Origin: Candidatus Bathyarchaeota archaeon
GTDB taxonomy: Archaea > Thermoproteota > Bathyarchaeia > Bathyarchaeales > Bathycorpusculaceae
Assembly: GCA_963733095.1 (NCBI GenBank)
Contig: CAVTBV010000013.1
Location: forward strand, 1 to 64,000
DNA: 64,000 nucleotides
Direction of reading: 5' to 3'
The notes beneath the pieces were generated by a model that worked only from the letters and a program-made list of their open reading frames with translations, did not search any database and was not told the DNA's origin. Positions 4,725-28,776 of this stretch are shown piece after piece; the stretch's first letter is position 1, and each line of letters opens with the position of its first letter. Both the position numbers and the translations under genes were made by a program.

Positions 4725-4834
4725 AGCTATTTACTATCCTTAAAACACCATTTATTGGTCTTTGAACATAAGGTTTTTCTATGATAAGGGTTTAAAAAAG
4801 TTGCAAATCAAAGAAACAGTATTTTAAACAGGTT

Positions 4835-5914: not shown

Positions 5915-6016
5915 TTCGATCCCTTAAGTTTTATACTGTGTGTTTTGCTATTAACGATTTGCATTTACGCTAAAAAAAACGTTAGTTTGCATGGAAAAGC
6001 AGTTTTGCAAAAAAAA

Positions 6017-6730
6017 TTAACTTACGTTGAAATAATAATCATTTGGGGAACCATCTGGCAACGTTATTGCGTCATATACGTTGGAAGCAATGAGTGATGC
6101 ACCATCAGGGTTTGGATGCACCCCATCCATAAAATATTCTGAGTGGTTACCAAAAACATCGTACATGTTAACTGTAGGCAAATCTAATTGGTTTGCAACA
6201 TTGTCAACATGCGGTATCACCGAATTAACAAGGTATGTATTGTTGTAACTTGAGGTAGTGCTGAAAATCGGCGGTGACTCAACAATCCAGATTAGCTGAT
6301 TACCCTCAAGATTTTCAAAAGAGGTGACCAACTGGATATAGTCAGATTCAAAATTGTCTTCGCTGTGAGCGATTTCTGGGTTAGCATCATTTGTTCCAAG
6401 CATTATTACAACTATGTCGGGATCGAAGTTTTCTGCGTTCTTGAATGCGGTCTGGTTCATGTAAGGTATAGTGGAATTTTGTGACACAGTGGATCCGCAG
6501 ACGCCAAAATTACCCACCGTATAGTTAGAGCCAAGTAGCATTTGAAGTTTGTAGGGATATCCGCTTCCCTGAGTTATACTGTCTCCCACACAAGCAACAC
6601 GTACTGGTGTACCTAAAACAAGAGGTGTCGTTGCTACGCAGTATGCGGCAAGACCAGCTGACAGAATCATCACGGAAATTACGATTGCTGATACCGTTGT
6701 TTTCAGATCCATACCATTTGCCTCGACCAT
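6017..6730 (-). CDS. Secreted/anchored SGNH/GDSL hydrolase
   Basis: GDSIT, GTND and DGVHP blocks; N-terminal hydrophobic helix. Confidence 0.9.
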   Translation of the reverse strand: MVEANGMDLKTTVSAIVISVMILSAGLAAYCVATTPLVLGTPVRVACVGDSITQGSGYPYKLQMLLGSNYTVGNFGVCGSTVSQNSTIPYMNQTAFKNAENFDPDIVVIMLGTNDANPEIAHSEDNFESDYIQLVTSFENLEGNQLIWIVESPPIFSTTSSYNNTYLVNSVIPHVDNVANQLDLPTVNMYDVFGNHSEYFMDGVHPNPDGASLIASNVYDAITLPDGSPNDYYFNVS

Positions 6731-6828
6731 TCAGCGTTTGACACTTACGCAATTGAAATATTGGTTTCTATTGGAAGATTCGAATGCTAAGGTTTTAACC
6801 AGAATAGAGGCTCATCCAATATAAAATT

Positions 6829-7127
6829 TTAGGTAGAAATAGCCTGTTCGTCTTCATCCACGGTGACAATAAATTCGAGTTCGGGCTCCTTCACGATAAT
6901 GGCACTTCTTCTTTTTATGAGGCTTGCCTTTAGCATTAACGAGCCGCTTATCATAGCTCCTAAACCACCCAAGATACACATGTAACGAGTGTAGCCTCCA
7001 AAAAGTGGGTGAACTCCCTCTGACCACCCAAATAGGGCAAACTCTAAGGCTGAGGTACCTACAATTAACGCTAAAGCTCCAACTGTAATTTTGTTTTTAA
7101 GATGTTCGATTATTTTAGGCGTTGCAT
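6829..7127 (-). CDS. Small membrane protein, probable 1-nt frameshift just after the start
   Basis: ~99-codon open frame with two hydrophobic segments (KITVGALALIVG..., MCILGGLGAMISG); ATG after GAAGGTG is out of frame. Confidence 0.35.
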
Positions 7128-7608
7128 TGCACCTTCTAGGCGGATATTGTTTAGGTGCACATTAAGTGTGGCATGGGTAAACGGTTTATGAAATCAAGGT
7201 TCATATTTGAAATATTTTTTCGAAAAAACTTGTTCACCCCACATGTTAATAGTCTGAAAATCAGCTAATGCAGACCTATCCATCTATCGTTTCTGCATAA
7301 AACTACTATTAGGTTCCAAATAAAAAATTTCAAACTGTCGCAGAAAAAGAAAGAGCACTATCTTACTTTTCTCTTTATTTTGCTTCCATCGTCAAATGTA
7401 AGAACCCTCTGTGCAGGGTTTACTTTTGGAGCGACTTTTTCAACAATTTTCTTTTCAGTTTTATTCGTGTTTAACAAGCTATCCGTTAGACAAGAGATTC
7501 GACTTAAAACTTTGGTGGCTAATAAAATACTAATCGCTGCATTTTAATCACTAGAGTTTATCCATGCTTACTTTTAGAGGTGGTTTGCAACTTCCTTTGT
7601 TGGTGTTG

Positions 7609-8871
7609 TTATTCAATTTTACTATGTCTGTACCTCAAGATAGCGGCGAAGCCTCCTAAGGCTGTGAGCTTGGCTTTTTCCGTCGACTCTGTCGATATCA
7701 CCTCAACCCTTGCGTCTGTCTGCGAAGCCAAATCCTCCAGAACATCAATTATGTCCTTCTCCTCCACTTCATAATCAACCGCATTGCACCTCGAACATGG
7801 ACTCGAAATCATATCCCGCGTTGCTTGAACCTTCTGCTCGTTATGCAAAATTTTCGACTTTGATAATCTGCATTTTTTGCACAATAGAACAACTTGAATC
7901 ATTTCTGTAGTGTCCGCCACTAATGCAACTTCCACTTCACCATTCTTAAGAGCCGCCAAAACCACATCTAAACCGTAAGTAGCTAAATTGTCTTGTTTGC
8001 CCAGATAAGTCAAAAGCCGTTGCACAATCAATCTTTCCTCAGGTGCACACATGTTCTTGATGGTCTCGGATGATTTGTCAAGAACCTCTTTCACTCCTTC
8101 TTTGTCGGCGGATTGTGTATCAACCGTGCTAACTAGGGCATTTTGGAGTTCATAATGAAGATAATCACCCTTTAGAAAATCCTCTTTGGTTAGCCCCGGT
8201 CCCCCAACTGTCAACGCCGTAACTTTGTGTTTTTCAAGAAACGCTTTTGCAGAATGCTCTGCAACTCGGTGGAAATAGTTTGTGAGCGCCATATCGCGTT
8301 CTCTTTCATACCTTCGTTGGCTTGACCCGCCCTTTCCAGACTTGCCATGAATCCCCGAAGTAATATTCTCAAGAATTTCAAGGCGTTCACCATTGAGAAC
8401 CCCAAAGCTTGCCTCCTTTGAATCCAAAACAATTACCCCAACAACTTTTTGGTTTCTCAGCATTTCTCTTATAGGCTCTAACCGAAAATGGTTGTCAACT
8501 TCGTAGAGGTATGCGGTAATCGGTTCTGGTGGAGCGAGCTCTTCAACGTATAAAACTTCGTTTTCCGAGTTGTTAGGAGCGAAAGTCCCAGCAAATAAGG
8601 CAATTCCATTCTCAGGGATTTGATTCTGTAGTTTCAGTCGTTGGATAATATTCTTGAGAGCATCTTGCAGATGGTCTCTGATGTTCCTTGCGTTCTCGTA
8701 CTTTGAGGTTGCCTCTTCGGATTCATCCTTTAGGTTTGCAACTACTTTGTCCAGCGATGAGTCTCGTGGTATGTAGAGCGAGATAAACTCCATGCCCTTG
8801 CCCTCTTTGTCGGATAACCATGCCACGAGCTTTCTTAGTTTGTGCTGCTTCACTGAATTTGTGGTTGCCAT
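7609..8871 (-). CDS. aRF1/eRF1-family paralogue with degenerate catalytic and stop-recognition motifs
   Basis: ISLYIP, ENGIALF, GPGLTK and LGGFAAILRY motifs and CxxC-CxxC minidomain are present; GGSSQRR replaces GGQSxRR. Confidence 0.85.
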   Translation of the reverse strand: MATTNSVKQHKLRKLVAWLSDKEGKGMEFISLYIPRDSSLDKVVANLKDESEEATSKYENARNIRDHLQDALKNIIQRLKLQNQIPENGIALFAGTFAPNNSENEVLYVEELAPPEPITAYLYEVDNHFRLEPIREMLRNQKVVGVIVLDSKEASFGVLNGERLEILENITSGIHGKSGKGGSSQRRYERERDMALTNYFHRVAEHSAKAFLEKHKVTALTVGGPGLTKEDFLKGDYLHYELQNALVSTVDTQSADKEGVKEVLDKSSETIKNMCAPEERLIVQRLLTYLGKQDNLATYGLDVVLAALKNGEVEVALVADTTEMIQVVLLCKKCRLSKSKILHNEQKVQATRDMISSPCSRCNAVDYEVEEKDIIDVLEDLASQTDARVEVISTESTEKAKLTALGGFAAILRYRHSKIE

Positions 8872-8989
8872 CTGACATCCATGAAAATGTGTTGAAACCA
8901 AATTCGACACCTTAACGTTCAGTTACGGGGAATACTAATTTATAGAGTTTCTCAATAAGGGTATTTGTTTGGCAAGAGGAAATATTTTG

Positions 8990-10357
8990 ATGAAGAGAAC
9001 AAAGATAATATGCACTATGGGTCCTGCTTGTTCTTCAAAGCAAGCTATCAAAAAAATGTTTCATGCAGGCATGAACGGTGCAAGGATAAACACTGCCTAT
9101 GGAAATCTTGCCCAATATCAAACTGTTATAGAAACGGTGCGGGAAATTGCCGAAATCCCCATCCTTATTGACATTAAAGGGCCCGAAATCAGAATCAAAG
9201 CATCACAAAGAAAAATCTTGCAAAAAGGCGACACCTTGGAAGTGGGGTTTGACGGCGAAGCTGTCTGTTTCAATCACGATTTTTACGATAAAATGCAGGT
9301 TAATGATGAAATCTACATTGACAACGGAAAAATCAGAACCCGCGTAGTTGAAAAGAAAGACCGAAAACTTTTGCTTCTAACCCTAACCAACGGTGTGGTA
9401 GAGGATGGAAAAGGAGTCAACGTTCCCAATAAGTCCCTTGCAGTTCCAACTTTTCCTGAAAAAGACCTTGAAATCATAAAGTTTGCAAAAAAACACGACG
9501 TCGAATACGTTGCCCTTTCATTTACAAGAAATGCACAGGATGTAAGAAACCTCTCTGAAACCAACAGCTTTAAGGGAGGAATAATCGCAAAGATCGAGAA
9601 TTCTGAAGGCGTGCAGAATGTCGAAGAAATTTTGGATGCTTCCAGTGGGTTAATGGTTGCAAGGGGCGACTTAGGTGTTGAGATTGAACCTGAAAGAGTG
9701 CCTTTAGTTCAGAAATCACTCATCAAATTGTGTAATCAAAAGGGTAAGCTCGTCGTTACGGCGACAGAGATGCTTGAATCTATGATTAATCAACCTAACC
9801 CAACTAGAGCTGAGGTAAGCGATGTTGCAAATGCCATACTTGACGGCTCAGATGCAATAATGCTTTCAGGCGAAACAGCGGTCGGTCAATATCCATTGGG
9901 TGCTGTTGAGATGATGACGCGTATTGCAAATGAAACAGAGAAGGCGGTCAAGAGCAACGTTGAAGACACATCCTTCATCAACATTTCTGACACTGTAAGC
10001 CGAGCAATCCAGAGGATAAGCCAAAGCATGCCGGTTCACAAAGTTATTCCCCTAACACGCTCAGGATACACAGCCCGAATGATAGCCCGCTTCAAGATTG
10101 CCCAACCCATAATCGCGGTCACACCGGAAATTAAAGTTAAAAAACAATTAGAACTTGCATTCGGCGTTTATCCTGTTCTGTTTGATTATTACGAAGAAAA
10201 AGACCGAGTATCAGCCGTAGCAAACAAACTTCGCGAAATGCATCTGGTAAATGATGAAGAAACAGTATTGTTTACTTCCGCGATGAGAACCACGATGAAG
10301 CATGCAAGCAACTCGATTGAGATTCATAAAATAAAAGAATTAAGAAAGTTTTCGTAG
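8990..10357 (+). CDS. pyk: Pyruvate kinase
   Basis: [46 protein letters not shown] and MLSGETA motifs. Confidence 0.97.
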
Positions 10358-10566
10358 GGACGATTGTAAGCATGACTTTCCTGAATTAAATACCGATTTT
10401 TCCAATTGTTTAAGGGTGGACCTGTAATTCGTAAATCTGCACTTGACCTAATTACATCGCCCGCCAAAACTCCACGCCCTCCACTGTAGGTTGGAATGTC
10501 TGATTCCAAGCCAATTTCCATGGAGAAATACACAATCTTGTCACCTTCAATAAAATTGTCGTGCAA
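10324..10566 (-). pseudogene. glgP: N-terminal fragment of alpha-glucan phosphorylase
   Basis: [35 protein letters not shown], then similarity stops. Confidence 0.7.
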
Positions 10567-10895
10567 TATTCGCTGTCAAAATAGTATGTTGCCCAAGAAA
10601 TTCACATTTAAACTCTGTTTTCTGTGGGTCTAATGGCATTCCACAAACTAGGTCTTTAGTCGAAATAAAATCAGAAGCCTCGCGGTATCTGCATACGCTT
10701 TCAGCAATAATTAGTTTTATCTTGCCTTAAAAACAATCTGAGCAATCTATGCAACCTTTTGCACTAAGCAAACTTCAAAATAGTTAATAGTCATCAAAAC
10801 ATAAACTATTAGATGTAGCAAAGCCGCGTTTTAACCGCTTGTAGTTTGACGTAGCGTTAACAGGAGACTCATTAGTTTTAGAAGGTTGAGACATT

Positions 10896-11396
10896 ATGGT
10901 TAAGAAAACTTACTCAATCACTGAGCAGTTAGATTTGCACGATGTTGTTGATTGTGTCAAGGGTCATCTGGAGAGAGCAGGATACGATGTTACCGCTTTG
11001 CATAATTATGGAAATGGGGTTACGATAAGGGCGGTAAAAGATAAACAAAGCTTCGTTGTTGAGGCTGTTGGGGGACGCGGAGAAATTTCTAGTGCAACAG
11101 GGGAAGAGGCGCTCTTGTATGCGGTTGGCGAAGTCGTGCGAAGGATGAAAGAGCGGGCAGCGTGGACTTTTTATGGAATTGCCTTTCCAAGGAGCTATTT
11201 GAAATTTTTGAAAGATTTCGAGGTGGGTGGAATTCGGTTGTTGGATTTTCATTTTTTTATCGTTGAGAATGTATGGTCTTTATACCATCTTGATGCAAAA
11301 GCGGCAATCGCGCTTATTGAAGATCTTAATGCGGACAAGCCTGAAAGGCTAATAGATTTAGATATAGATTTCAAGGATTATGATTTTAACGTATGA
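10896..11396 (+). CDS. Hypothetical protein with restriction-endonuclease-like (PD-(D/E)xK) fold
   Basis: HLERAGYDV...GVTIRAVK...VVEAVG pattern. Confidence 0.5.
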   Translation: MVKKTYSITEQLDLHDVVDCVKGHLERAGYDVTALHNYGNGVTIRAVKDKQSFVVEAVGGRGEISSATGEEALLYAVGEVVRRMKERAAWTFYGIAFPRSYLKFLKDFEVGGIRLLDFHFFIVENVWSLYHLDAKAAIALIEDLNADKPERLIDLDIDFKDYDFNV

Positions 11397-11734
11397 AGAA
11401 ATATTTTTTTACCATAGTGGTGCTTTTCGGCTGATTTCTCAGACCCACCTTACCGTCATTAAGTCGTTTATTTTTTATTGCCTGTGGTTCTTTTTTTTCT
11501 TTGTGTGGGTGTGGGGCTCTAATGTTTGCACACTTCACTGTGGGCTTTGGAAACGTTTGCTTTTTTGGTTTAGGCTTGTTGACTTGTGTGGTTTTAGTGT
11601 GGGAAGAGCGTTTGCTTACACACCTCAACATAGAACCCATGCAGAGAAGTGTGGACGTGAGAGTACAAGCATGTAAGCAACTGATTTTAGTAACATAAAT
11701 CCAAACTCAAATCAAGCCCTAAATACTAAAATAA

Positions 11735-11754
11735 TAGCGGACCCGATGGGATGC
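11735..11754 (-). repeat. tRNA 3'-end-like fragment (possible att scar)
   Basis: Reverse complement gcATCCCATCGGGTCCGCTA resembles T-stem plus acceptor 3' strand. Confidence 0.4.
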
Positions 11755-12239
11755 ACTTAAATTTACGATTATTCAGGCTTGAATATTTCTGGGCGGGGGA
11801 TAATAGCCCCAATTTACCAGTAAAAAAATTGTTAATGATGATACAAAGGGGTTGCAAAAAAACTGGGCAAATCTACGTCTAATTTGAAAACTCTTTTAAT
11901 TGTCGCAAGTTCTTCGTTTGTCAAAGCCTCAACAACCCTAAGAAAATACTTGTTTCGTTGAAAACTCAAAACTATTCATCATTATAACCTATGATCCTTC
12001 TGATACAATAATAAGTGATCTAAAATGTATTGCTGCCATCCTTTAGTGTAACCAGCAAACTGATAAAGAAACCACTGTAGAGAGTTGTTTCACTTTCTGA
12101 CGCGGAGTCTATGATTAATGACTAAGAAATCTGAAGTGAAGTCATAACCCGCCGCGTCTAAATTGACAAAACTTAATAATGATTACAACTTCCATAATTT
12201 AGAAAAAATAATAATTCTATGGCGGTTTAAGGTCTACCC

Positions 12240-12437
12240 TTGTCAAAGAATTCTCTTACAACTATTGGCATAAGATTATGTGTTGTTAGCATTGCTATGC
12301 TATTTATAGGAATCGTGGCAATACATCCACATAATGTAATTGAAACCGAAATTGATGAATCGATTATTCTGGCAGCTGTATTTTTCTTGGTAGTTGGATT
12401 AATAGCGATTTTAAGGGACAGAACAAAACGCAAATGA
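12240..12437 (+). CDS. Small two-TM hypothetical protein
   Basis: Two hydrophobic helices and a basic tail. Confidence 0.5.
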   Translation: MSKNSLTTIGIRLCVVSIAMLFIGIVAIHPHNVIETEIDESIILAAVFFLVVGLIAILRDRTKRK

Positions 12438-12484
12438 CTTTTCAGAACGCTTTTAGACTTTCGCATCATCCTGTGACTGTTAAA

Positions 12485-12805
12485 TCAGATGGGAATTTTT
12501 CCTATGACGTTTTTCTTAAGTTTCACCCATAAATCTTTTCTGTTATAGAACATTGGAGTAATTACGTATTCTAGTTTGTAGTACACATAATCTAATTCTA
12601 CTGAGGCGCGGGCAGCAAGAGAACCTTGTATTTCGTAGTTTAATCCTATCGCTCATCCTGTAACGCCTTCTATCCACCATCCATCTAAAATTTGCCACCC
12701 ACATAAGGCTGCTTCTATTCCGCTTGTTCCTGAGGCTTCTTGGGTTGATAATGAAGTATTTAGCCAAATATCTACGCCTGCTATAGTTTTGGCTGCTGTC
12801 GCCAT
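12485..12805 (-). pseudogene. Hypothetical ORF interrupted by one in-frame TGA
   Basis: [10 protein letters not shown]...IEGVTG*AIGLNYEIQ...KIPI*; 107 codons in one frame. Confidence 0.3.
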
Positions 12806-12845
12806 GTCATAGTTTTCTAAATACTAAATTTTTTATCGCTTCAGG

Positions 12846-13781
12846 TTAAGTTTTCTTGATTGTGAGATTCTTTGAATGCTGATCGTGTGCTTCATCAGAC
12901 TCGATTCTAATCTTAAAATCCAAGACTTTGTCAAACATTTGCTTTATCTTCTCTTCCACCTCAGTAGCTATTTGGTCCGCCTCCCTAACGAGCATTTCAC
13001 TGGAAACAACAACATGCATATCTCCGGTCATGTATGGTCCCAACCTTCTCACGCGAATGCTGTGCACTTCCTTGACGCCTTTAACATTTTTCGCTATTTC
13101 TCCAATTGCACCAACGAAATCTCCACAGCTGCACGCATCCACTAGAACCAAAGAGGATTCTTTAAATATCGAATATGCGCCAACAAAAATGGCGCCTGAT
13201 ATCAATATTCCCGCAACTGAGTCTGCATGTAAGATTCCAAAATACCTACTAAGGACAACACCAATAAAAACTGCGATCGAGGTAAGTACATCCAGAGTGC
13301 TGCCTAGGCCGCCAACCCTGAGGGCTGTTGAACCCAACTTTTTTGCCGACTTGTTAATCCATGCAGATACTACCAAAACCACTATTGCTGATGCTGCGGC
13401 AACGAATATGGCTGTTTCAGCGTTTGCGACTGTCCTTTGTGCTACCCAAGCGTTGTATGCTTCAAAGAGAACGAAACCTCCAAAAACTGCTAAAACAAAG
13501 GCTGCAATGAAACTTCCAAGAGCCTCTATTCGATAGTAGCCAAAGTGAAAGGTTCCGTCAGGAGACCGCCCTGAAAGTCTTATGCCGATCCATATAATTA
13601 AGAAAATCAAGGATGTAGCGATAGATTGAATTCCGTCTGCTAATAGCGCAACGCTGGTGGAGAATAATGCAGCTACCACTTCAACCACGCCCACGGCTAA
13701 GATTATGAAGAAAGCTGTTTGAGCAATTACCCCGCCTTTCTTTAGATCTTGTGATGACAACGGCGTCAACCTTGTGAGCAA
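12846..13781 (-). CDS. Cation diffusion facilitator (CDF) transporter
   Basis: SVALLADG, FHFGYYRIE, 6 TM helices, C-terminal VHSIRVRRLG domain. Confidence 0.92.
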   Translation of the reverse strand: MLTRLTPLSSQDLKKGGVIAQTAFFIILAVGVVEVVAALFSTSVALLADGIQSIATSLIFLIIWIGIRLSGRSPDGTFHFGYYRIEALGSFIAAFVLAVFGGFVLFEAYNAWVAQRTVANAETAIFVAAASAIVVLVVSAWINKSAKKLGSTALRVGGLGSTLDVLTSIAVFIGVVLSRYFGILHADSVAGILISGAIFVGAYSIFKESSLVLVDACSCGDFVGAIGEIAKNVKGVKEVHSIRVRRLGPYMTGDMHVVVSSEMLVREADQIATEVEEKIKQMFDKVLDFKIRIESDEAHDQHSKNLTIKKT

Positions 13782-14075
13782 TTATTAAGGAAGATCTTAG
13801 TTAGAGTGATTATTTAATTCACCTGTAATAACAGATGAAAGAAACATAGCTGCAAACGCTGCTAATAACTTCAAGTTGTTTTGGCTCCCACCAAAGTTAA
13901 TTGGATACGAACCAAGAATGGTTCAGGTCTCTACCGAGCCTATCCCTGAAACGTATGAGCCACTGTGTTCTCAATGTATCTTTAGCTTTTTTCTGGTTTT
14001 GAGTTAAAATTTCTGTAAATGTGGGATATGCATAATACATTAAGCGAGTCCTAATTTTTTCTTGGGAAACACTGA

Positions 14076-14095
14076 TGGCGGGCTCACTGGGATGC
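14076..14095 (-). repeat. tRNA 3'-end fragment including CCA (possible att scar)
   Basis: Reverse complement gcATCCCAGTGAGCCCGCCA; a related GGTTCAAATCCCAGTGGCC piece lies at 14149-14167. Confidence 0.5.
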
Positions 14096-14193
14096 GTTCA
14101 AACTATTAAGCGAATCCAATACAATCAAAGGATAAACCGACGTAGTAAGGCCACTGGGATTTGAACCATAGGACAAGTGGAGATGTCACCCGA

Positions 14194-14236
14194 ACACTTC
14201 ATTATTAGTTAGACTTTTGAAGTTAATGATATACCA
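14194..14236. repeat. Left terminal inverted repeat
   Basis: Reverse complement tggtatatcattaacttcaaaagtctaactaataatgaagtgt. Confidence 0.8.
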
Positions 14237-14296
14237 ACATTGTTAATGTGTTTATTGAATAAAAGTCTTTCACTCGCTTGCGCTGAGTTAACTTAT

Positions 14297-14869
14297 TTAG
14301 CTAAAGTTTCTTGTCCATCCATTATTGTCAGCGATAGTTGGCAATATTGACTCAATAACATAGTGCAGAGGGACATTATCAGATTCGGCATATTGGTATT
14401 CAGCTGTTGTTAACCCTGTTGATTCATTGAATGAGGTGTTTACAGGTAAATGTTGTATTAAATATGCTCCAGCTAAGGCACCCATGTCAGAATCAATATA
14501 TTGTTGAGGAATTTCCCAGAATGAATCGATGAACTGAACGTAATTTTCGCTCCATGTTTTACTCGAATCATAATGTTTTGAGAATATGTCGGTCATGCTC
14601 TGACTTAGCCATGTTACGTTGTTGATATATTCAGGTTTTAGATGCCATTCGTACACAACTTTGGTTGGGGTTGCTGTGGGAGTTGGTGTAGTATAAGAAA
14701 TTGGTGTTGGTGTTGGCATTTGTGTTGGTGTTGGTGACTGATTAGGCGTTTTATGGTTAAGTTGGTTAATTTCTTGTTGCAAGTAACTAAAGCCAACTAC
14801 CATACTCACTATGATAACCAACAAAATAGCAATTATTATTGGGATAATCTTGTTGTTCATTGTATTCAA
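14297..14869 (-). CDS. Membrane-anchored protein with Pro/Thr linker
   Basis: N-terminal TM helix, PTPTQMPTPTP linker, extracellular domain. Confidence 0.75.
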   Translation of the reverse strand: MNTMNNKIIPIIIAILLVIIVSMVVGFSYLQQEINQLNHKTPNQSPTPTQMPTPTPISYTTPTPTATPTKVVYEWHLKPEYINNVTWLSQSMTDIFSKHYDSSKTWSENYVQFIDSFWEIPQQYIDSDMGALAGAYLIQHLPVNTSFNESTGLTTAEYQYAESDNVPLHYVIESILPTIADNNGWTRNFS

Positions 14870-15030
14870 GATAATAGGCTATATTTGAATTAAAAAACTT
14901 GTCCGTAAAAGTCTTTTGACTAAGCTCAGTCAAGTTTTCTTGACTAAGTTAGCTGAAGGATAATGTTTGATTGAATTATATTTTTTCCAGGTTTCCTTAG
15001 CGCTTGCTCAATCTATGTTTCGGAGCATAA

Positions 15031-15180
15031 TCAAGACGATTGAAGAACCAGTTGGTCACCCTCAAGTTTCCAGAAACGTTGGCGACCAGAAGCCAACCGC
15101 TTCAATCTTTTCAGAGGAACACTACCCACATGATAGCCACCTTGACTTCCCTTTTTAGAAACTCTCAAAATTACCTTCAA
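15031..15180 (-). CDS. 49-aa AbrB/SpoVT-like microprotein (copy 2)
   Basis: TTG start; MKVILRVSKKGSQGGYHVGSVPLKRLKRLASGRQRFWKLEGDQLVLQSS; paralogous to adjacent ORF. Confidence 0.65.
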   Translation of the reverse strand: MKVILRVSKKGSQGGYHVGSVPLKRLKRLASGRQRFWKLEGDQLVLQSS

Positions 15181-15324
15181 TTAACACGACTCCAAAACAA
15201 GCCACTCGCCATCCAAAGACCAAGCCAACTTACGACCAGAAGCTACCTGTTTCAATTTTTTCATAGGAACACTACAAATTCGAGAACCATTCTCAGTGGT
15301 AGTTACTTTCAATAAGACCTTCAA
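15181..15324 (-). CDS. 47-aa AbrB/SpoVT-like microprotein (copy 1)
   Basis: TTG start; MKVLLKVTTTENGSRICSVPMKKLKQVASGRKLAWSLDGEWLVLESC; stop abuts the start of copy 2. Confidence 0.65.
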   Translation of the reverse strand: MKVLLKVTTTENGSRICSVPMKKLKQVASGRKLAWSLDGEWLVLESC

Positions 15325-15429
15325 ATAAAGCTATCCTCATCAAACTACCTATCCCATTTCCTTAATTTATGCTTTATTATATTCTATTATTGTCCATATT
15401 CCATGCAGAGTTTTGTGTATTAATATCAA

Positions 15430-15752
15430 GTGAAGGTGGGTGGCACGACGACGTTAACACCACCTTTCTTGCAGAAAGGTGGCGCCAAAGATGATTAACC
15501 GCGCGGTCTTGTTAGTCCGCTCGGTTGTTTTGTTGTGTTGCCCTACTGGGTGAGGGCAACGCAGTCAAGAACCGCATTGTTATTTTTTTTGGTTTTGCGT
15601 TGAGATACTGTGGCGACATAAACCCAAGCCCTGTTGGGTTTCGGTCGTTTCAGCCGACGCGAAAGGTTTATTGTCGCCAATGACAGAGGGACGCATATCA
15701 GCCCCGCATTGTGTTAGTCATTTGACTCCATTTGAATGTGACTAAAACGCGT
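15430..15752 (+). ncRNA. Candidate structured non-coding RNA (unassigned)
   Basis: At least 6 helices, GC-rich island in AT-rich context, G-U pairs work only on the + strand. Confidence 0.5.
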
Positions 15753-15821
15753 TTTACAAAATCCTCAACTATTCCTTTCATTGCAAAAGCTTAAGGCGCA
15801 TTCATGACAAACGCTTAGAAC

Positions 15822-16340
15822 ATGATAACCATAACGGAACAGCTTTGGAGCGATGTAAAGCAATCGACAATAAGGGGAGTTATGAAACTCTTGGATGCTT
15901 CGCAAATGCTTTTACTAAATAATGGAAATAAGGAGGTCTGTGCAGGTTTGTACAGTTACGCTGTCGAAGAATACGGAAAATACCTCAGACTGACTGATTG
16001 TCTAAAGGTGCAAAATGGTGTTGAACTTGATTATTATGATATCTTTAGAGAAAGACGCCATGAAAAGAAGTTTAGAAGAGCCATCGATGACCTAAAGAGC
16101 AAGGACGCTTGGGAATGCACCATTTTAGCAAAGGGTCTCTTTGATCCTGCTATATTTGACCCTAAAATTTTTGATACCAGACCTCCTGTTGTTGTGGATT
16201 TCAATGCACGAATGGGGGTTTTCTATTGCGATTTGGATGATTCAAAACAGAGTTTAAGGGCTATTCCAGAGGTAGATATTGTACTTTTAGAAAAAGCGAT
16301 AATAAAGCTTAGAGAAATTCTGTTACCTCTAATCTCTTAA
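15822..16340 (+). CDS. HEPN AbiV-family protein
   Basis: LLDASQMLL...GLYSYAVEEYGK and RRHEKK match the AbiV-type EExGK / HxxK pattern. Confidence 0.7.
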   Translation: MITITEQLWSDVKQSTIRGVMKLLDASQMLLLNNGNKEVCAGLYSYAVEEYGKYLRLTDCLKVQNGVELDYYDIFRERRHEKKFRRAIDDLKSKDAWECTILAKGLFDPAIFDPKIFDTRPPVVVDFNARMGVFYCDLDDSKQSLRAIPEVDIVLLEKAIIKLREILLPLIS

Positions 16341-17611
16341 TTGGACTGCGATTGTTTGATATAGCCTGATTTTAGCTTCTCCGCATCTTTTTTGAATTGT
16401 TTTACAAACTCTGGGTTGTTCGCTAACTTGTTAGCTACTTGTTCCATTATGCTGTCAGCCATTTCCCTGTAACTCTCGGAATTTGCTATTTGCTTAATCA
16501 TGTTGCTTAAAGCCTCAAGCTCATTTTTAACGTCCTCAAGTTCTTTGCCTTTCTCGTCAAGTTGCCTCTTTATCTTTTGATTTTCCTCAGAAATCACATC
16601 AGTAATTGTTCTCTGGTCAGTTAAGTCACTCTGAAGTCTTTTTATAGCGTTTTTTAGAGGCTCAATTTTCTCAATATCGAGTTTTGGCTGTTCTGTAATG
16701 CTCAAGAATGTTTTTAGTTGGATAAATTTCTGCCTCAGATTTACAGTTGTCAAATATGTGTCGTCTGATTGTGCTATGGCTTTTCCGCAAAGCTTCTTTC
16801 CCGCCGTTAAGCCAATTCCGCTATCGATTGATGCAGAGAGGAACATTTTTCTAAAACAGTGAAATGAAACGCACTTGCCGTTAAGGTTAATCTTTGCTTT
16901 TTCTGTTAAACGCTGTAAGAGCTTGTTTAGCCATTCGTCAGAGATGCTTCTATTTCCATTAGAGGGGAAAAGGTATGGGTTGCCGTTTTTGCGTTCTAAA
17001 GTTGGCAAATAGATTTTGAGAAGGTCAACTGTTTCTTTGCTTAGAAAACCGTACGCTAAGACGCCCTCTTTTACGGTCATAGTTTCGAAGGCTATCGGCG
17101 GTTCTTGGTCTAATAATGGTAAATCGGATTTTTTTAGCGCAATAAAATCGCCTATCCTTAAACCCAAATCCGTTGCCATGATCAAAATTACTCTTTCCCT
17201 CAGGTCAGCTACTTCAAACATTTTACGGACATATTCAATCGTTAGAGGGAAATTCTTGGTTGTTTTAACCGTCTTTCCTATTTTGCTTCCGTTTCTAAAG
17301 CGTATTGGCATTTCATAATATCTGAAAAGTTGCCTAATTCCTAAGGTTTGAACTCTTGCTGTGTTGATGCTTCCTTGAGTTAGAAGTTGACTATGGAATT
17401 TTTCTATTTCTTTTTCAAAGTGTGAAGCTCTGTTTCGATATTCAATCAGGTTTTCTCCTGCTTGTTGGGTTAGGTCTTCTTTTCTAAGCTCAAGGATTTG
17501 TTCTGCGGTCTTTCCGTACCATTCACAGAACTTTTTAAGTCCATGTCTGTAACATTTTCTTGTTTTTGGGTTTGATATTGACTCAAGGAAGACTTGACTA
17601 CTCAATTCCAT
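16337..17611 (-). CDS. Tyrosine recombinase/integrase with C-terminal coiled coil
   Basis: GLRIGD (Arg), FHCFRK (HxxR), DTY (Tyr); N-terminal TRKCYRHGLKKF. Confidence 0.92.
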   Translation of the reverse strand: MELSSQVFLESISNPKTRKCYRHGLKKFCEWYGKTAEQILELRKEDLTQQAGENLIEYRNRASHFEKEIEKFHSQLLTQGSINTARVQTLGIRQLFRYYEMPIRFRNGSKIGKTVKTTKNFPLTIEYVRKMFEVADLRERVILIMATDLGLRIGDFIALKKSDLPLLDQEPPIAFETMTVKEGVLAYGFLSKETVDLLKIYLPTLERKNGNPYLFPSNGNRSISDEWLNKLLQRLTEKAKINLNGKCVSFHCFRKMFLSASIDSGIGLTAGKKLCGKAIAQSDDTYLTTVNLRQKFIQLKTFLSITEQPKLDIEKIEPLKNAIKRLQSDLTDQRTITDVISEENQKIKRQLDEKGKELEDVKNELEALSNMIKQIANSESYREMADSIMEQVANKLANNPEFVKQFKKDAEKLKSGYIKQSQSN

Positions 17612-17636
17612 TCATCCACACTCCATATATTTTGTG

Positions 17637-17679
17637 TGGTATATCAAACTACCTCAAAAGCCAACTAATAGTAAAGTGT
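17637..17679. repeat. Right terminal inverted repeat
   Basis: tggtatatcaaactacctcaaaagccaactaatagtaaagtgt. Confidence 0.8.
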
Positions 17680-18007
17680 ACACCCGCAAAACCCCTTTTT
17701 AGTGCAGTCTTAACAGTTCTTATCTCTAAACGGCTACAACTGACTATCCTCTTTTTATCTAGCTTCTGCGTCCGCAATTAATGTTAAATATTGAATAAGA
17801 CGAGATACAAACAGGTGCTTGTTTGTGGAAATGTCGATACCTTTCTCTTTCATGACTTGAACTACTATGGGTTAACTTTGTCGGCCGGTTTATTACCCGC
17901 ACTTGATGCAGTGATTCTATCTTTTCCATATTTGTTAGCAAAGGCTTCTGCTATTTGACTTCTGCCAGCGTTTTCGACACACACGAATAGAACTTTCTTT
18001 ATGACAA

Positions 18008-18313
18008 TCAACTCTTGGTTCGTTTTACTGGATAGGTCTTTCTTAGACCACGAATTAATTCTTGAGTCTGCTTTTTAGATTGATGTTTTATGGCGCCAGC
18101 AGGGCAAATTGAATCGCATCCAGAACACAATAACACACAGTTGGTTGGAGTCTTTACTATGGGGCGTTTCTTTCCGTTCTTCTCTTCAAAATCAAATGTT
18201 CTAAAGGTGCAGTATTCAACGCATTTTCCGCAGTTTACGCATTTTTCATAATCAATTGTTGGGTACCAAGGTACTTTACTTCGAGGGATTCCGTGCCAAG
18301 TTTCTTCCGACAT
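18008..18313 (-). CDS. 2x[4Fe-4S] ferredoxin family protein
   Basis: CVNCGKCVEYC and CVLLCSGCDSICP; N-terminal GIPRxxVPW. Confidence 0.9.
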   Translation of the reverse strand: MSEETWHGIPRSKVPWYPTIDYEKCVNCGKCVEYCTFRTFDFEEKNGKKRPIVKTPTNCVLLCSGCDSICPAGAIKHQSKKQTQELIRGLRKTYPVKRTKS

Positions 18314-18488
18314 TTTAAAGTCACTTTGAAGGCGCGAGTTCTTATATTTTGTTACAATTGACCCGCTATTTAATCTGATTGGTAGGAAAAAATGATAATT
18401 ATCGTTAGAGACATAAGTTCAGATTTTTCTGAAAAATCAGCAAAGTTTAAATGTTGAGAAAGTTAATGCCATAATCAAGGTAATTTGT

Positions 18489-18740
18489 ATGAGTAGTTGT
18501 ATTGGTGATACCTGCAGAATTGATGCAGTAATATCGATGGATGCGAAAGGACAAATTGTTCTTCCGAAGGATTTGCGTGAAAAGGCAAACTTCAAGCCAA
18601 ACGACAAAATAGCTGTAGTAGCTTGCGAAAAAGACGGTAAAGTATGCTGCATTATGATGTTGAAAGCTGAAAGACTACAGGGTGCCTTAACCAAAACGCT
18701 CGGTCCATTGCTCAAAGGAGTAACTAAACAGGAGAGTTAA
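18489..18740 (+). CDS. AbrB-like regulator resembling HgcAB-associated HgcC
   Basis: CRIDAVISMDAKGQIVLPKDLRE...DGKVCCI. Confidence 0.75.
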   Translation: MSSCIGDTCRIDAVISMDAKGQIVLPKDLREKANFKPNDKIAVVACEKDGKVCCIMMLKAERLQGALTKTLGPLLKGVTKQES

Positions 18741-18743
18741 TTT

Positions 18744-19571
18744 ATGAAAGAAGAAAAAGTTAAGAAACTTGTTAGAAATCGTTATGCAAAAGTTGCTAAA
18801 ACCAAAGGTTCTTGCTGTGCTTCAAATGTCAGCTGCTGCTCAGCTCCGACAAACGACCAAGTTAGCAAAATGATTGGTTACAGCGAAGAAGAGATGAACG
18901 CTGTTCCAGAAGGTGCCAATCTCGGATTAGGCTGTGGCAATCCGACAGCTTTAGCATCTTTGAAAAAAGGCGAGAGAGTTCTGGATTTGGGTTCAGGTGC
19001 AGGCTTTGACTGCTTTTTGGCAGCTAAGAAAGTAGGAAAGCTTGGGAAAGTCATCGGCGTAGACATGACTCCTGAAATGCTTGACAAAGCAAGAGCTAAC
19101 TCCAAAAAAGGCAAATACACAAATGTCGAGTTCAGGCTCGGAGAAATTGAAAACCTTCCTGTCGCAGACAATTCAGTCGACGTTATAATATCAAACTGCG
19201 TAATCAACCTCGCCCCAAACAAGAAACGAGTATTCGAAGAAGCGTTCAGAGTTCTTGCCCCAAAAGGTCGATTGATGGTTTCGGACATTGTCCTCCTGAA
19301 AGAGTTGCCTGAGTCTATTCAAAATAATGTTGAAGCCTATGCTGGATGCATCTCTGGAGCAGAACTAAAAGACAAATACCTTGAACTAATCCAAAAAGCA
19401 GGATTCAAAGAAGTAAAAGTTATAGACGAAAAAACTTACCCGCTTGAATACATCATAAGTGAATCCACATTGAAAGATGCAATCAAAATGGCAAACATGA
19501 CCGAAGAAGAGGTAAAGGAAGCAGCCAACACTGTGGTAAGCGTAAAAGTATCTGCAGTGAAAACGGCATAA
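18744..19571 (+). CDS. arsM: Arsenite S-adenosylmethionine methyltransferase
   Basis: [26 protein letters not shown] and AGCISGA motifs; N-terminal Cys pairs. Confidence 0.93.
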
Positions 19572-19595
19572 ACCCATCAAAAAAGACGGAACACA

Positions 19596-19687
19596 TAGGA
19601 GATAAAAGCTTCACCCCTGCAGTTTTCAGATTGTGGTTGCTTCGAACCCTCTGTGAATGGAGAAATCACCCGCATCACCCCATTTTT
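19596..19687. repeat. Dispersed ~92-bp non-coding repeat, copy A (putative empty recombination site)
   Basis: Aligns with 28684-28776; core tggaga..TCACCCGca..accc..ttttt. Confidence 0.8.
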
Positions 19688-20042
19688 CTTAAAATCTGTG
19701 CTTTATGAAGAAGCAGAAAAAGGAAATATTTGGACAAACATACGTAAACGCTTGCTTGAAAAGTAGTTTTAGGTCAAGGAAGGGCTTTTGCCGAGTATAT
19801 TGTTCCAAAAAGGAGAACAGAATTATCACTTCACAGCTGAGAAAGCAAAGGTGTTATTTTATCTATTATTGAATGAAAGAACAAGGTGAACGTCTAAAGG
19901 GGTTCAGGAATGCCTATTTAAATCTTGATACGAAAGATTTCGTAGGCAAGACCCATTTGTTATACAAATGAAGCGAGAGCCACAATTAGCGATGATTAGC
20001 AAAACTTATGATTTGCCCGCTCAATATTTAATTGTCTAATTC

Positions 20043-20750
20043 ATGGAAAACTATAAACTTAAATCTAAATTGCATAGAAATAGTCTAATCATGGCAACGT
20101 CAAAACAAGAAAACCTAAAAACTGAAGATTCACTTCAAAATGCAGTAAATAAACTTGCAATAATACTCAAAATTATTTTTGAAGATAACCAAGACATCTT
20201 CTTAAAAAAACCAGAAGAAGTTAGTGTGAAAGACCTAAACAATTTGTCAGGCTCATTTGTTTCACTTTCAACACAATTTCAAGAAGTTATCGAAGAATGG
20301 TTTGAATCTACGCCAGAAGGATTTGATGTTTTTAAAAGGTCGGAAGAACTGGAAGACCAGATTGACATTCAAGTATCCGAGGCTGATAAACTGGATTTTG
20401 AGCAAATAAGAAAAATCACCAATAGACTGAATAGAATTAACGATGCTATAGAAAGTTTAGAGAGAGTATCGGTTTATCTTAAATATTATGAAGATTTGTG
20501 CAAACAAAAAGGTCTTACGATGGATGCTAACTTGTCAGAACTTTTTAGAGTTTTTGGTATTGAGGAATTTATCAAAATCCTGAGAATTGAGGCAAAGAAA
20601 CATCGGAAACAAATAGAGAGAAATAATTTGTACAATAATCTGTACAATCAAGCTAAATTGAACACAAAGACATTGAAAATAGCTTATGCAGCCTTGGGAA
20701 TCTCTGTTTTGTCCGCTATACTTGCTGTGTTGGGTTTGCTCTTGAAGTAA
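20043..20750 (+). CDS. Hypothetical helical protein with C-terminal TM anchor
   Basis: 235-aa ORF, charged helical body, hydrophobic C-terminus. Confidence 0.65.
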   Translation: MENYKLKSKLHRNSLIMATSKQENLKTEDSLQNAVNKLAIILKIIFEDNQDIFLKKPEEVSVKDLNNLSGSFVSLSTQFQEVIEEWFESTPEGFDVFKRSEELEDQIDIQVSEADKLDFEQIRKITNRLNRINDAIESLERVSVYLKYYEDLCKQKGLTMDANLSELFRVFGIEEFIKILRIEAKKHRKQIERNNLYNNLYNQAKLNTKTLKIAYAALGISVLSAILAVLGLLLK

Positions 20751-20919
20751 AAAATATTTTTGTAAAAGTAATGCGCTACGGTAAATGGGGATGCAAATCA
20801 ACTCCGCTATTTTCTAAATATTAGCTTTCGTGTTTAGATGAGTTATCAAGCTAATTGTATTAAACTACGTTTATGACGTCGAAAGTTAAGTTTGTCAAGC
20901 TTTTCGCTTTGATTTTATT

Positions 20920-21075
20920 TTAGATTTTCAGCTTCTCAGCGAAGGCTTCAGCATGTTTGAGGTCTTCTTCATTAGGTCTTCCTTTGTTTAATCCACCAAA
21001 ATACTTGAGAAATTTGTTAGTGTTGAAACCTGCACAACTAAACTCGTTCGCAATCGTGTAGCCTTTGGATTGGAC
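20920..21075 (-). pseudogene. C-terminal fragment of flavodoxin-like protein
   Basis: SKGYTIANEFSCAGF...GGLNKGRPNEEDLKHAEAFA without N-terminal half. Confidence 0.65.
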
Positions 21076-21232
21076 AGTTGTCTTTAAGGACGTGTCTCTG
21101 ACCGCCTTATGAAGTGATTGGGTATTTAAAATTATGCGTCTATTTGACAAATGTTCATTTTCTGAGCGCGCGCTGGCGAAACCTTAAATAGAAAATAAGC
21201 CGATAGGCGCTAACATAGAGAAAGGGCTCAAA

Positions 21233-21691
21233 ATGAAGGTTTACGAAAAGTACGCGTGGGTGATATTACTAGCTGTAGGGCTGTTATGGTTGGTGGTTGG
21301 AATCGTTGCTGTGTTCCAGCCAGAAGGAATATTTGAGGGGGACGCCCAATCTGTCACAAACATGCCGTGGAGTGAGCTCAAGGCTTCGAGCCCTGAGGCT
21401 TCCAACTTTGTCATCTTCGTCTATGGGCAAATGGGTCTGCTCAAGATAAGTTGGTCATTGTTCATATTAGCCATAACTCTAACGGGTTATCGTAGGGGAG
21501 AAAAATGGGCTTGGTACATAATGTTATTAGCTCCTATCCTGCTGGTGAGCGATGCAGTTTTCAGCGCCGTCTTCATCGGCGACATCAACCAATTACTAGA
21601 TTTTATTCCAATTACAACCATAACGATGCTTGGGCTACTTGTGCCCTACAGGATATTCTTCCCAAAGAAACCATCGAAGGTGCAACAATGA
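21233..21691 (+). CDS. Four-TM hypothetical membrane protein
   Basis: Hydrophobic helices; YRRGEKWAW. Confidence 0.75.
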   Translation: MKVYEKYAWVILLAVGLLWLVVGIVAVFQPEGIFEGDAQSVTNMPWSELKASSPEASNFVIFVYGQMGLLKISWSLFILAITLTGYRRGEKWAWYIMLLAPILLVSDAVFSAVFIGDINQLLDFIPITTITMLGLLVPYRIFFPKKPSKVQQ

Positions 21692-22092
21692 ACATAAAAC
21701 TGGTACTGAGTGCAGCGCTTGCATTTGTTGCGTACTTTTTAGGCATTATAGCTGATGCGAACCATAATACGGACAGCGTGGTTTATCCCGCCGCATGTTT
21801 TTCCAAAATATTCCTCTTCTTAGTCGCCATTCCACTTGCAAACTCGGCCGGTAAAAGCATCAGAAAACAGTTAGGCACAACGGGGATTCCAGGTTTAAGA
21901 TTCACAAGTTGGATCCTATACGGAGTTGCAATAGTTCATTTTGCCTTTTTCTTTATGTGGCCCACTATTGCAAGCGGAAATACCCAGCTCCCAGACGGGC
22001 AAATAACGGTTGATGCAACGATCTTTCTTATGGCGTCGATGTTTATGATTGCAGACGCCCGGAATTCGCAAAAAAACAAAATTGGAGTGTAA
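21688..22092 (+). CDS. Hypothetical membrane protein
   Basis: ATGA overlap with upstream gene; four hydrophobic segments. Confidence 0.7.
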   Translation: MNIKLVLSAALAFVAYFLGIIADANHNTDSVVYPAACFSKIFLFLVAIPLANSAGKSIRKQLGTTGIPGLRFTSWILYGVAIVHFAFFFMWPTIASGNTQLPDGQITVDATIFLMASMFMIADARNSQKNKIGV

Positions 22093-28388: not shown

Positions 28389-28683
28389 CTACGTGGTAGA
28401 ATGTTGAATTTAGCACCATGCATTAGAACATAACATCATAATTTTTGGAACAGGATGTTCTAAACAATAGAACGGACACTTTAGAAATCCTCTAAGATTT
28501 GAATTACGCCAAAACATTTTGTAGTGGTTTGTCAGTTGGAGGTTTATACTTGAAGCTGAAATTCAAACGGTTTTGGCTAATACTGTTAATTAGTTTTTTT
28601 CCGCACCTAAACCTGTTATTTTGATAAAATTTCCTTATTTCATTTCTGGTTTTTCAGAATCATGCGAAATAAATCCCGTTTTT

Positions 28684-28776
28684 TAGGATATAGAAGCTAC
28701 ACCCCCTGGCAATTTGGGCAGCCGTTGCATCGAACCCTCAGTGAATGGAGATGTCACCCGCATTACCCAATTTTTT
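28684..28776. repeat. Dispersed ~92-bp non-coding repeat, copy B (putative empty recombination site)
   Basis: Aligns with 19596-19687; tggagatgtcacccg (28746-28760) is identical to 14178-14192. Confidence 0.8.

Follow-up and report, generated by a model that had tools for sequence, protein, structure and literature searches.

A compact site-specific element of Bathyarchaeia that probably inserts at the 6-bp core of a repeated chromosomal module

Integrated elements of thaumarchaea, as described in the available text of Krupovic et al. 2019 (PMC6563490), are intergenic in 15 of 68 cases, have attachment (att) repeats of down to 8 bp and have been noted to form tandem arrays. The core sites of Xer/dif and lambda-type recombination consist, in the available portion of another account (PMC8371274), of inverted binding arms around a spacer of 6-8 nt whose edges are the cleavage points, and the tycheposons of Prochlorococcus, according to the accessible part of their description (bioRxiv 10.1101/2020.12.28.424599), recombine with the tRNA sequence itself, measure 10-20 kb and usually contain a replication module. 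Bathyarchaeia are a very abundant, uncultured sediment lineage whose mobile elements are hardly described. Here we analyse a 64,000-nt stretch of DNA from Candidatus Bathyarchaeota archaeon (assembly GCA_963733095.1, contig CAVTBV010000013.1, positions 1 to 64,000; hereafter the window), which belongs to a host genome of 16 contigs, 2.84 Mb and 43% G+C. Positions 14187-17686 of the window, for which an original prediction had proposed a compact tyrosine-recombinase element with long terminal inverted repeats and a 6-bp core duplication, are very probably an integrated copy of a compact site-specific element of Bathyarchaeia, here termed E, that inserts at the 6-bp core of a repeated module.

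The 3.5-kb element is flanked by the direct repeat CACCCG (CGGGTG on the minus strand), present, as predicted, at 14187-14192 (integrase-distal junction) and 17681-17686 (integrase-proximal junction), each copy being the putative crossover region. Inside these cores lie two inverted arms. Our repeat search of 13800-18100 found them without gaps at 14194-14217 and 17656-17679 (24 nt, 79% complementary), a pair ranking second by length among the 242 inverted pairs in this 4.3 kb. When gaps were allowed, the repeat extended to about 47 bp, against the roughly 43 bp originally proposed, with the integrase-distal arm at 14194-14239, the integrase-proximal arm at 17633-17679 and a local alignment score of 26. 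This score was unmatched both in 5000 shuffles (maximum 20) and in 5000 random pairs of 66-nt segments from window positions 10001-22000 (maximum 24), that is, in 0 of 10,000 controls together, which disposes of the worry that the similarity might not stand out from shuffled AT-rich sequence. The distal arm contains the blocks ACACTT, ATTAGTT and TGATATACC and is 85-87% identical to that of a second copy of the element on contig C9 of the same genome; the proximal arm is 91% identical to its C9 counterpart and follows a consensus, TAGACCTTACGATTAGTTGGyTTTT..TGATATACC, that holds over 33 elements. Since Xer and lambda-core sites are made of inverted arms around a spacer of 6-7 nt, symmetric arms around CACCCG are the form expected of an attP, the attachment site of the element. 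On sequence grounds, the inverted repeats are thus best read as putative recombinase-binding arms of a dif-like attP, not as transposase ends, and the view that they set the element apart from site-specific integrases is not upheld, arms with a short asymmetric core being a simple tyrosine-recombinase site in the available text of PMC8371274. What is unusual in this attP is only the length of the arms and their three conserved blocks.

The gene facing inward from the right end (16337-17611, minus strand) encodes a tyrosine recombinase of 424 aa that matches Pfam Phage_integrase (PF00589) over residues 133-276 (E 1.4e-10, 41.7 bits; cut-off 27.1). The start codon of this gene lies 22-26 bp inward of the right repeat, in agreement with the 26 bp given at first, and 75 bp downstream of the att core. 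The closest solved structure is Pyrococcus XerA (4a8e, E 2.8e-5) and the closest NCBIfam model is archaeal XerA (NF040815, 60.5 bits, E 1.8e-16), whose cut-off of 220 is not reached; the protein is accordingly a distant relative of XerA and not XerA. Among 89 aligned family members, the presumed catalytic residues that match those of XerA, namely R152 (in LRIGDF), H250-x-x-R253 (FHCFRKMF) and Y286 (DDTY), are at least 97% conserved. The tail beyond about residue 300 is not conserved, family members ranging from 343 to 474 aa, and the Pfam names that it attracts (ATLF, DUF445 and others) are sub-threshold and were dismissed as low-complexity or coiled-coil noise. An SSV-type ('suicidal') integrase was rejected, as the open reading frame (ORF) 16337-17611 is intact and both cores lie outside it. 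PF00589 was the sole recombinase family matched in the element, with no match to a DDE, DEDD, HUH or serine transposase. Elsewhere in the host genome (2.8 Mb), for which 20 PF00589 matches were recorded, several matches directly adjoin tRNA genes (Ala, Val, Pro, Phe, Arg, Asn, Ser). On contig C12 the integrase has two distant paralogues (116.8 and 267.6 kb), which are 28-29% identical to it and have no module nearby; both are preceded, about 150-300 nt upstream (116.4 and 267.3 kb), by ATTAGGATCC(A/T)AATAT, which may be a recombination or regulatory site of their own.

The second, diverged copy of the element, at about 114.6-118.6 kb of contig C9, has an integrase 80% identical to that of the window and ends that are 85-91% identical. 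The two copies are homologous at both ends, in the integrase and small-protein regions and in parts of the non-coding block; their cargo differs. The C9 copy interrupts a further copy of the module, again at CACCCG, and the homology continues about 30 nt and about 20 nt past the two cores because both elements sit in the same repeated sequence. The proposal of an element family was borne out well beyond this pair. Searching contigs of species-representative genomes with the integrase returned 30 loci, 27 of them labelled Bathyarchaeota, Bathyarchaeia or Bathyarchaeum (the exceptions being one Thermoproteota single-amplified genome, one Sifarchaeum and one Heimdallarchaeota metagenome-assembled genome), and metagenome contigs contained 229 integrase relatives, the best 80 of which were analysed.

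After exclusion of two loci in which the match did not start near residue 1, 99 loci were examined for ends; an end could not be recognised in 5, flank was missing from 1, and 93 had at least 20 nt of it. In all 93 flanked loci, a count that is biased, a C(G/T)G(G/T)NG-type core is found 41-50 nt upstream of a TGATATAC box. The sequences upstream of the integrase starts align base for base across loci in a conserved order, namely the TGATATACC box, a ATTAGTTGG(C/T)TTTT block, TAGACC or TACAC, the core CGGG(A/T)G and then unrelated flank. In order to avoid circularity, the distal arm was then sought by inverted-repeat score alone in 83 non-redundant loci, 38 of which reached a score of at least 14. 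For 29 of these 38, the 6-mer following the distal arm was the proximal core (24 CGGGAG/CGGGAG, 5 CGGGTG/CGGGTG, 0 mixed), so that the expectation that flanks of homologous integrases would show the same repeats and core was borne out; among the other 9, one locus was the same with a 1-nt slip in register, one differed by 1 nt, and 7 were low-scoring and are not ends. Once the window and C9 copies are added, the set of complete, non-redundant elements numbers 33, with lengths of 2.85-7.2 kb. A core position that is variable and yet always agrees at both ends is expected for a strand-exchange overlap and not for a duplication made by a transposase.

One metagenome contig (L131) shows what a junction between two element ends looks like. 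It carries a full element, with an integrase 88% identical to that of the window, in tandem with a 1378-bp copy across a single CGGGTG. The short copy (2803-4186 of that contig) consists of a proximal arm, a small-protein gene, a membrane-protein-like ORF and a distal arm, and has no integrase; integrase-less derivatives of the element thus exist. It is followed by a second CGGGTG and then the module half ATATCTCCAC with T-arm-like sequence. A second junction of distal arm, core and proximal arm, here between two different elements, was found at locus L104. The symmetric circle junction obtained in the original prediction by joining the ends therefore has a natural equivalent in the L131 tandem; a circular form was not seen, as set out below.

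Read on the integrase strand, the uninterrupted module is AAAAAGGGGnnTTG, CGGGWG, AYATCTCCAC (core pattern AAAAAGGGG..TTG-CGGGWG-AYATCTCC), an imperfect palindrome whose halves (GGGGA / TCTCC) surround the core. In the window, the half at 14174-14186 (minus strand), a putative arm of attB, the chromosomal attachment site, adjoins the core and reads AYATCTCCAC on the minus strand, where ACATCTCCACTT follows the core; the other half, AAAAAGGGGTTTTG in minus-strand reading, lies at 17687-17706 (minus strand) in host or island DNA outside the element and shares 19 of 20 nt with the same half, at C9:264479-264498, of an uninterrupted module. About 25-30 module copies were found in the host genome by a loose search, and the strict 14-mer CGGGWGAYATCTCC occurs there 10 times, 2 of these sites being occupied. 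Across 41 genomes (the host, 24 of the genus and 16 of the order), the strict 14-mer is present in 19, with 0-10 copies each, and the integrase (E<=1e-30) in 3; a reversed control pattern gave 2 matches in total. The module consequently exists without the element, and its copies represent natural unoccupied sites. In 3 metagenome runs, contigs (6, 3 and 4 in number) follow the window as far as 14192 and continue with CAAA..CC..TTTTT, which is the other module half. RNAalifold on 24 module copies revealed no consensus RNA structure on either strand.

Insertion into the module is also polarised. The integrase-side flank has the module half with the A-run and G-run in 60 of 93 relatives, and the distal flank begins AYATCTCC-like in nearly all complete elements, which indicates orientation-specific insertion; relative to the module, the orientation is fixed in all 34 complete elements. 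These data bear on a cut-and-paste transposon, an explanation in which the terminal repeats would be of transposase type and CACCCG a 6-bp target-site duplication. A locus with inverted repeats and a short direct repeat does resemble a textbook insertion sequence, the genome contains two copies of the element, and an integrase-less miniature copy exists. We nevertheless consider this explanation hardly credible: the same conserved 6-mer is found in all 31 elements with defined ends (29 of 29 in the unbiased scan, the window and C9), it is already present, once, in unoccupied modules, the orientation is invariant, and the sole enzyme is a tyrosine recombinase with Xer-like catalytic residues, no DDE or HUH match having been obtained. 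The 6 bp, originally described as a core duplication, are hence not a duplication of target sequence; the same CGGG(A/T)G recurs family-wide.

Taken together, we propose that the Xer-like recombinase of E would bind the two inverted arms of about 47 bp, which in an excised circle would flank a single asymmetric 6-bp core, CGGG(T/A)G, and so form a dif-like attP. The recombinase would pair this attP with a chromosomal attB containing the same 6-bp core within the short palindromic module, and strand exchange at the core edges, the presumed cleavage positions, would leave one core at each junction. The element would enter in one orientation only, with its integrase beside the A/G-run half, and the module is a dispersed repeat that occurs independently of E and about 8 nt downstream of which a displaced tRNA 3' fragment typically lies. 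A circular intermediate is implied by this scheme, and the window copy may still be active.

Several findings weigh against this proposal. The last (second) catalytic His is replaced family-wide by a Lys (GK276), which is conserved in at least 97% of the 89 members. The two genomic copies are 78-87% identical, and no recent movement within the genome is evident. All counts were taken over related sequences, which are not independent events, and kinship inflates them. The flanks of 33 of the 93 loci depart from the simple module pattern, some in a recurrent manner with flanks ending in GGAGATATCTATGTCAATCGGGAATA or GAAAACGGTCATGTGATGGCGGATTT, the former being seen in six loci and again paired with ATATCTCC on the far side; target choice is thus broader than one motif. 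As for an orthologous empty site, the left and right flanks were not adjacent in any of 40 relatives. The public data consisted of 5 DNA runs, each containing at most 7% of the sampled words of the window, and no RNA run; in contigs of 4 of the DNA runs, at 85% likeness, neither a circular form or circle junction nor a joint across the element was seen, only the loose ends at 14192 and 17688 being informative, so that both allele types sought on the advice of the original prediction failed to appear. No free circular contig was present among the 80 metagenome loci. Despite these points, we consider it very probable that E is a site-specific element inserting at the module core.

Many module copies have, about 8 nt beyond AYATCTCCAC, a match to the 3' end (T-stem to discriminator) of a tRNA of the same genome. 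Such a stretch, of 18-25 nt and 91-100% identical, accompanies 10 of 28 host module copies, and none was found at 7 of the 28; one copy matches tRNA-Leu(TAG) at 25/25 nt and others match Leu(CAG), Cys, Ala(TGC) and Arg(CCT). At the element-split module of the window, the displaced fragment (14145-14173, minus strand; T-arm to acceptor end, tRNA-Pro-like) lies in host or island DNA outside the element and aligns locally to positions 49-77 of tRNA-Pro(GGG) of the same genome, with a blastn core of 20 nt at 95%. Some 20 nt lie between the crossover core and this tRNA-derived snippet, which has no counterpart in half of the complete relatives. The element had been called non-tRNA-targeting, which stands to the extent that no recombination takes place inside a tRNA gene, and has to be amended in that the target module sits beside a tRNA 3' stretch in 10 of 28 copies. 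At the window site and at uninterrupted copies, no tRNA was called by ARAGORN or by Rfam RF00005, and Rfam matched no other known RNA there, either at gathering score or at E<=1. A tRNA-like minihelix, a 't-element' and a permuted tRNA were rejected as identities for the module, there being no conserved acceptor-stem partner and the tRNA similarity beginning only in the T-stem. A tRNA-Asn with a 2779-nt 'intron' reported by ARAGORN at C7:48190-51063 was taken as a false positive, its sequence not being tRNA-like.

Modules and tRNA genes also form arrays. In the complete genome G003, a tRNA-Cys gene is followed after 1.55 kb by a module with a Cys-like snippet, and a tRNA-Ala gene is followed after 0.87 kb by a module with an Ala snippet and, after another 7.9 kb, by a second module with an Ala snippet. 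A third G003 locus combines tRNA-Gly and a recombinase-like ORF of 435 aa with a module at 9.7 kb distance; it was discarded as a clean pair since the snippet is not that of tRNA-Gly, and its ORF is unrelated to the element integrase (blastp E 0.097). In the window, the layout on the minus strand is tRNA-Leu(CAG) at 29088-29175, modules at 28747 and 19659, an ars block and the element-split module, beyond which come the tRNA-Pro-like snippet and more tRNA-like debris at 14024-14117. The module may accordingly be a conserved arm beside a displaced tRNA fragment, marking the outer border of tRNA-integrated units and serving as attB for the element; with the module at the far edge of such units, E would land at the borders of tRNA-linked islands. 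A tidy version of this island-border picture is weakened by three observations: snippets within one array are not always derived from the flanking tRNA, module sub-families share longer homology on one side or the other, and an intact integrase-bearing parent element ending in a module was not found.

Further observations were made around these sites. One module sub-family, about 100 nt long, has five copies (window 19589-19690 and 28650-28775, C9:265.4 kb, C7:85.2 kb and C3:3.5 kb) that share GGATATAGAAGCTACACCCCC...TCGAACCCTC..GTGAAT upstream of the core; its tRNA-like part ends inside the T-loop, at GGGTTCGA, and its copy after arsM is missing from the same position in 9 relatives. The left flank of the element contains a 30-nt direct repeat (14022-14051 / 14088-14117, 70% identical), and this flank (14022-14117 and 13873-13962) also has stretches that resemble tRNA-Arg(CCG) at its 3' end and flank, as well as repeats on C7 (49485-49575) and on C12 (509980-510054); these left-flank repeats look like debris of earlier integrations. 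A nearly homologous unoccupied site with the same downstream GGATTCGCTTAA is located at about 887.7 kb of G003. Classical repeats of tRNA 3' fragments bound islands of 7-13 kb, for example at tRNA-Ser C1:102369 / 89095 and tRNA-Ser C13:94365 / 87157, and a second type of arm, GGCGATATCG.., adjoins tRNA snippets on C14 (23.5 and 28.0 kb). On the right of the element, 17817-18011 (minus strand) is an arsC pseudogene (arsenate reductase of LMWPc type) with 48 aa in frame and then a frameshift, whose similarity to relatives stops at about residue 65 (near 17817). Between this break and the module half at 17687 lie about 130 nt of unrelated DNA. One relative (G012) has an intact arsC of 134 aa, with the same ferredoxin, AbrB-like and arsM neighbours.

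The arrays invite a different reading, in which the module would be the main actor: a genome-wide landing and exchange site at which E-family integrases, supplied by E or by viruses, would insert themselves and also recombine any two sites with the shared 6-bp core, module with module included, thereby excising, shuffling and spreading the gene units that co-oriented modules enclose next to tRNA genes, much as in integron cassettes or tycheposon arrays. Such modules would be the recombination sites of a system that builds islands. Co-oriented clusters of modules exist on C9 (256.9-265.5 kb, n = 5), on C7 (83.4-86.0 kb, n = 4) and in the window (14179/17687, 19659 and 28747), arrays start at tRNA genes in G003 and in the window, and the module arms are alike and loosely resemble the core-proximal arms of the element. 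A viral source of integrase is also on record. Contig L266 of IMG/VR is head-tailed virus-like, with Pfam matches to Terminase_6N, portal and capsid proteins in 592-9161, and has at its end an integrase of the E family (72% identical over residues 50-364, N-terminus not recognised); it has no E-type arms, and an uninterrupted module-like site, CGGGAGACATCGCC, lies 280 nt upstream of the integrase. It was the only integrase relative found in IMG/VR, so that the virus case is n = 1. More than 114 stretches with the module 14-mer were found in IMG/VR, and none of the 80 loci listed showed the T-arm context and one contained a T-run, no more than chance would give for a 14-mer. Against module-to-module exchange, no product of such an event was observed, the genes between modules are ordinary and chromosomal-looking, the tRNA snippets of an array do not always come from its flanking tRNA, and the arsC'-ferredoxin-AbrB-arsM block (17817-19570) is found in 9 relatives with no module within about 1.5 kb on either side. 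We judge this reading quite unlikely; if true, it would describe a tyrosine-recombinase cassette system in Archaea, distinct from integrons. An integron proper was rejected, since none of the 20 PF00589 matches mapped genome-wide falls in the C7 or C9 module arrays and the units between modules are ordinary genes in both orientations.

Between its arms, the element of the window carries few genes. The integrase-distal one (14297-14869, minus strand) encodes a 190-aa protein with a hydrophobic N-terminal segment and a Thr/Pro-rich linker, in keeping with the membrane protein predicted; no family could be assigned to it, Pfam giving sub-threshold matches only and PADLOC and NCBIfam nothing meaningful, and its sub-threshold match to YopE_N was dismissed as low-complexity or coiled-coil noise. 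The two supposed microproteins proved to be tandem paralogues of 49 and 47 aa (15031-15180 and 15181-15324, minus strand), members of a family, F2, of conserved basic proteins of about 48 aa. F2 has 29 distinct homologues in related elements, with invariant S-V-P and W positions in the alignment, and its AlphaFold2 model (predicted local distance difference test score 84.4) has a beta-beta-alpha-beta-beta order. No match to F2 was obtained in Pfam or, by profile search at E<=10, among sequences of the Protein Data Bank (PDB), and Foldseek against PDB structures gave nothing at E<=0.001 (best 0.4); an AbrB/SpoVT identity is unsupported by these three comparisons. F2 is a candidate DNA-binding accessory factor, and one might guess at a role in directionality or regulation. 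The right-hand cargo gene (15822-16340, plus strand) encodes a 172-aa protein that can be called HEPN/AbiV-like only weakly, its own match to HEPN_AbiV (PF18728) being sub-threshold (E 0.041, 14.5 bits; cut-off 27.1), and the HEPN/AbiV label initially attached to it is to be tempered to that extent. The protein beside the integrase in the C9 copy does reach the cut-off (2.9e-11, 44.2 bits) and is 27% identical to the 172-aa protein (pairwise E 1e-4), for which PADLOC gave no match. In line with the original prediction, no replication, conjugation or virion family was matched among the scanned ORFs of at least 47 aa in the element.

Region 15400-15720 is non-coding and structured, as had been proposed. 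Its folding is far more stable than that of shuffled sequence (z -4.60 for the plus and -5.36 for the minus strand), and it contains a hairpin at 15537-15560, GTTGCCCT-N8-AGGGCAAC, together with two CCGCATTGT boxes (15571-15580 and 15703-15712). Stem and boxes are kept, with a variable loop, in the C9 copy and in loci L010, L018 and L065. By blastn, the block was matched in 4 of about 110 loci, most relatives being without it. A repeat found in the repeat search, D17, also falls in this region. The 48-aa protein and the hairpin with its iteron-like block are candidates for accessory or replication functions.

Ten complete elements, whose ORFs were inspected, have in common the integrase and the 48-aa protein and, in close relatives only, the non-coding hairpin block. 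The cargo of relatives includes HEPN_AbiV proteins, a DUF4145 protein with a PADLOC match to PD-T7-4 (1.1e-8), a STAND NTPase with a CHAT domain, a NERD nuclease, winged-helix regulators, and Kelch-repeat, PRC-barrel, amylase and DJ-1 proteins; the cargo is thus variable and often defence-like. One relative, L013, encodes a REP_ORF2-G2P replication protein (1.8e-8, 35 bits; cut-off 27.8). This last finding, with the strong structure of the non-coding block and the conservation of its stem and boxes around a variable loop in 4 related elements, would suit an integrated small plasmid that had the hairpin and CCGCATTGT boxes (15537-15580 and 15685-15715) as its replication origin once excised and used the integrase for chromosomal parking only. 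Such a plasmid would modify the site-specific integration proposed here and is compatible with it. We think it unlikely all the same: the window element has no recognisable Rep, a Rep is present in 1 of the 10 complete elements with inspected ORFs, the block is restricted to 4 of about 110 loci by blastn, and the 80 metagenome loci included no free circular contig.

With ends located to single-base-pair precision, about 250 or more sequenced family members, a fixed orientation of insertion into a conserved attB of about 14-35 bp, and natural tandem and integrase-less derivatives, E is among the best computationally specified integrase/att systems of archaea. The module would mark the outer borders of tRNA-linked islands and is present in many genomes that have no integrase; its distribution suggests that islands in these archaea grow by accretion, and module and tRNA snippet together make a simple sequence tag for island borders in metagenome-assembled genomes. 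Because the cargo includes AbiV-like, DUF4145, STAND/CHAT and NERD genes, these elements may act as small shuttles of defence genes. Full-text searches of the literature, supplementary tables aside, gave no description of either the element family or the module.

Multi-copy, orientation-specific insertion into sequences of other repeated or mobile entities is known from the IS1111-attC group, IS4321/IS5075 and REP-targeting insertion sequences; these use DEDD or DDE transposases, whereas E relies on a conserved crossover core and a tyrosine recombinase. Elements integrating at Xer/dif-type sites are known as IMEX. Judged by the available text of PMC8371274, E resembles the Xer/dif system in that the nearest relatives of its integrase are archaeal XerA proteins and the putative attP is shaped like dif (11-6-11); it differs in that the integrase is element-borne, attB is a multi-copy module instead of a single chromosomal dif, and each arm, at about 47 bp with three conserved blocks, is far longer. 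Tycheposons, in the accessible part of their description (bioRxiv 10.1101/2020.12.28.424599), share with E an inward-facing tyrosine recombinase at one end, insertion beside tRNA segments in tRNA-linked islands, tandem junctions, and adaptive or defence-related cargo; they are bacterial and have an integrase lineage of their own, whereas E uses a palindromic module beside the tRNA snippet, measures 3-7 kb and is mostly without a replication gene. The SSV-type integrases, as presented in the available passages of PMC8371274 and PMC7253208, are likewise archaeal tyrosine integrases of small elements, but have attP within their own gene, which is split on integration, whereas the gene of E stays intact. 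The closest likeness in description is to the cryptic integrated elements (CIE), which in the available text of PMC6563490 combine a tyrosine-recombinase integrase and flanking direct repeats with a lack of hallmark genes of viruses, plasmids or conjugation. The window element, first held to belong to no described class, fits this descriptive class, and one relative (L013) carries a Rep. Compared with CIE as characterised there, E is distinguished by a 6-bp repeat that is constant family-wide, by inverted arms of about 47 bp, by its Bathyarchaeia host, by a multi-copy module as target instead of a unique site, and by the existence of integrase-less miniatures.

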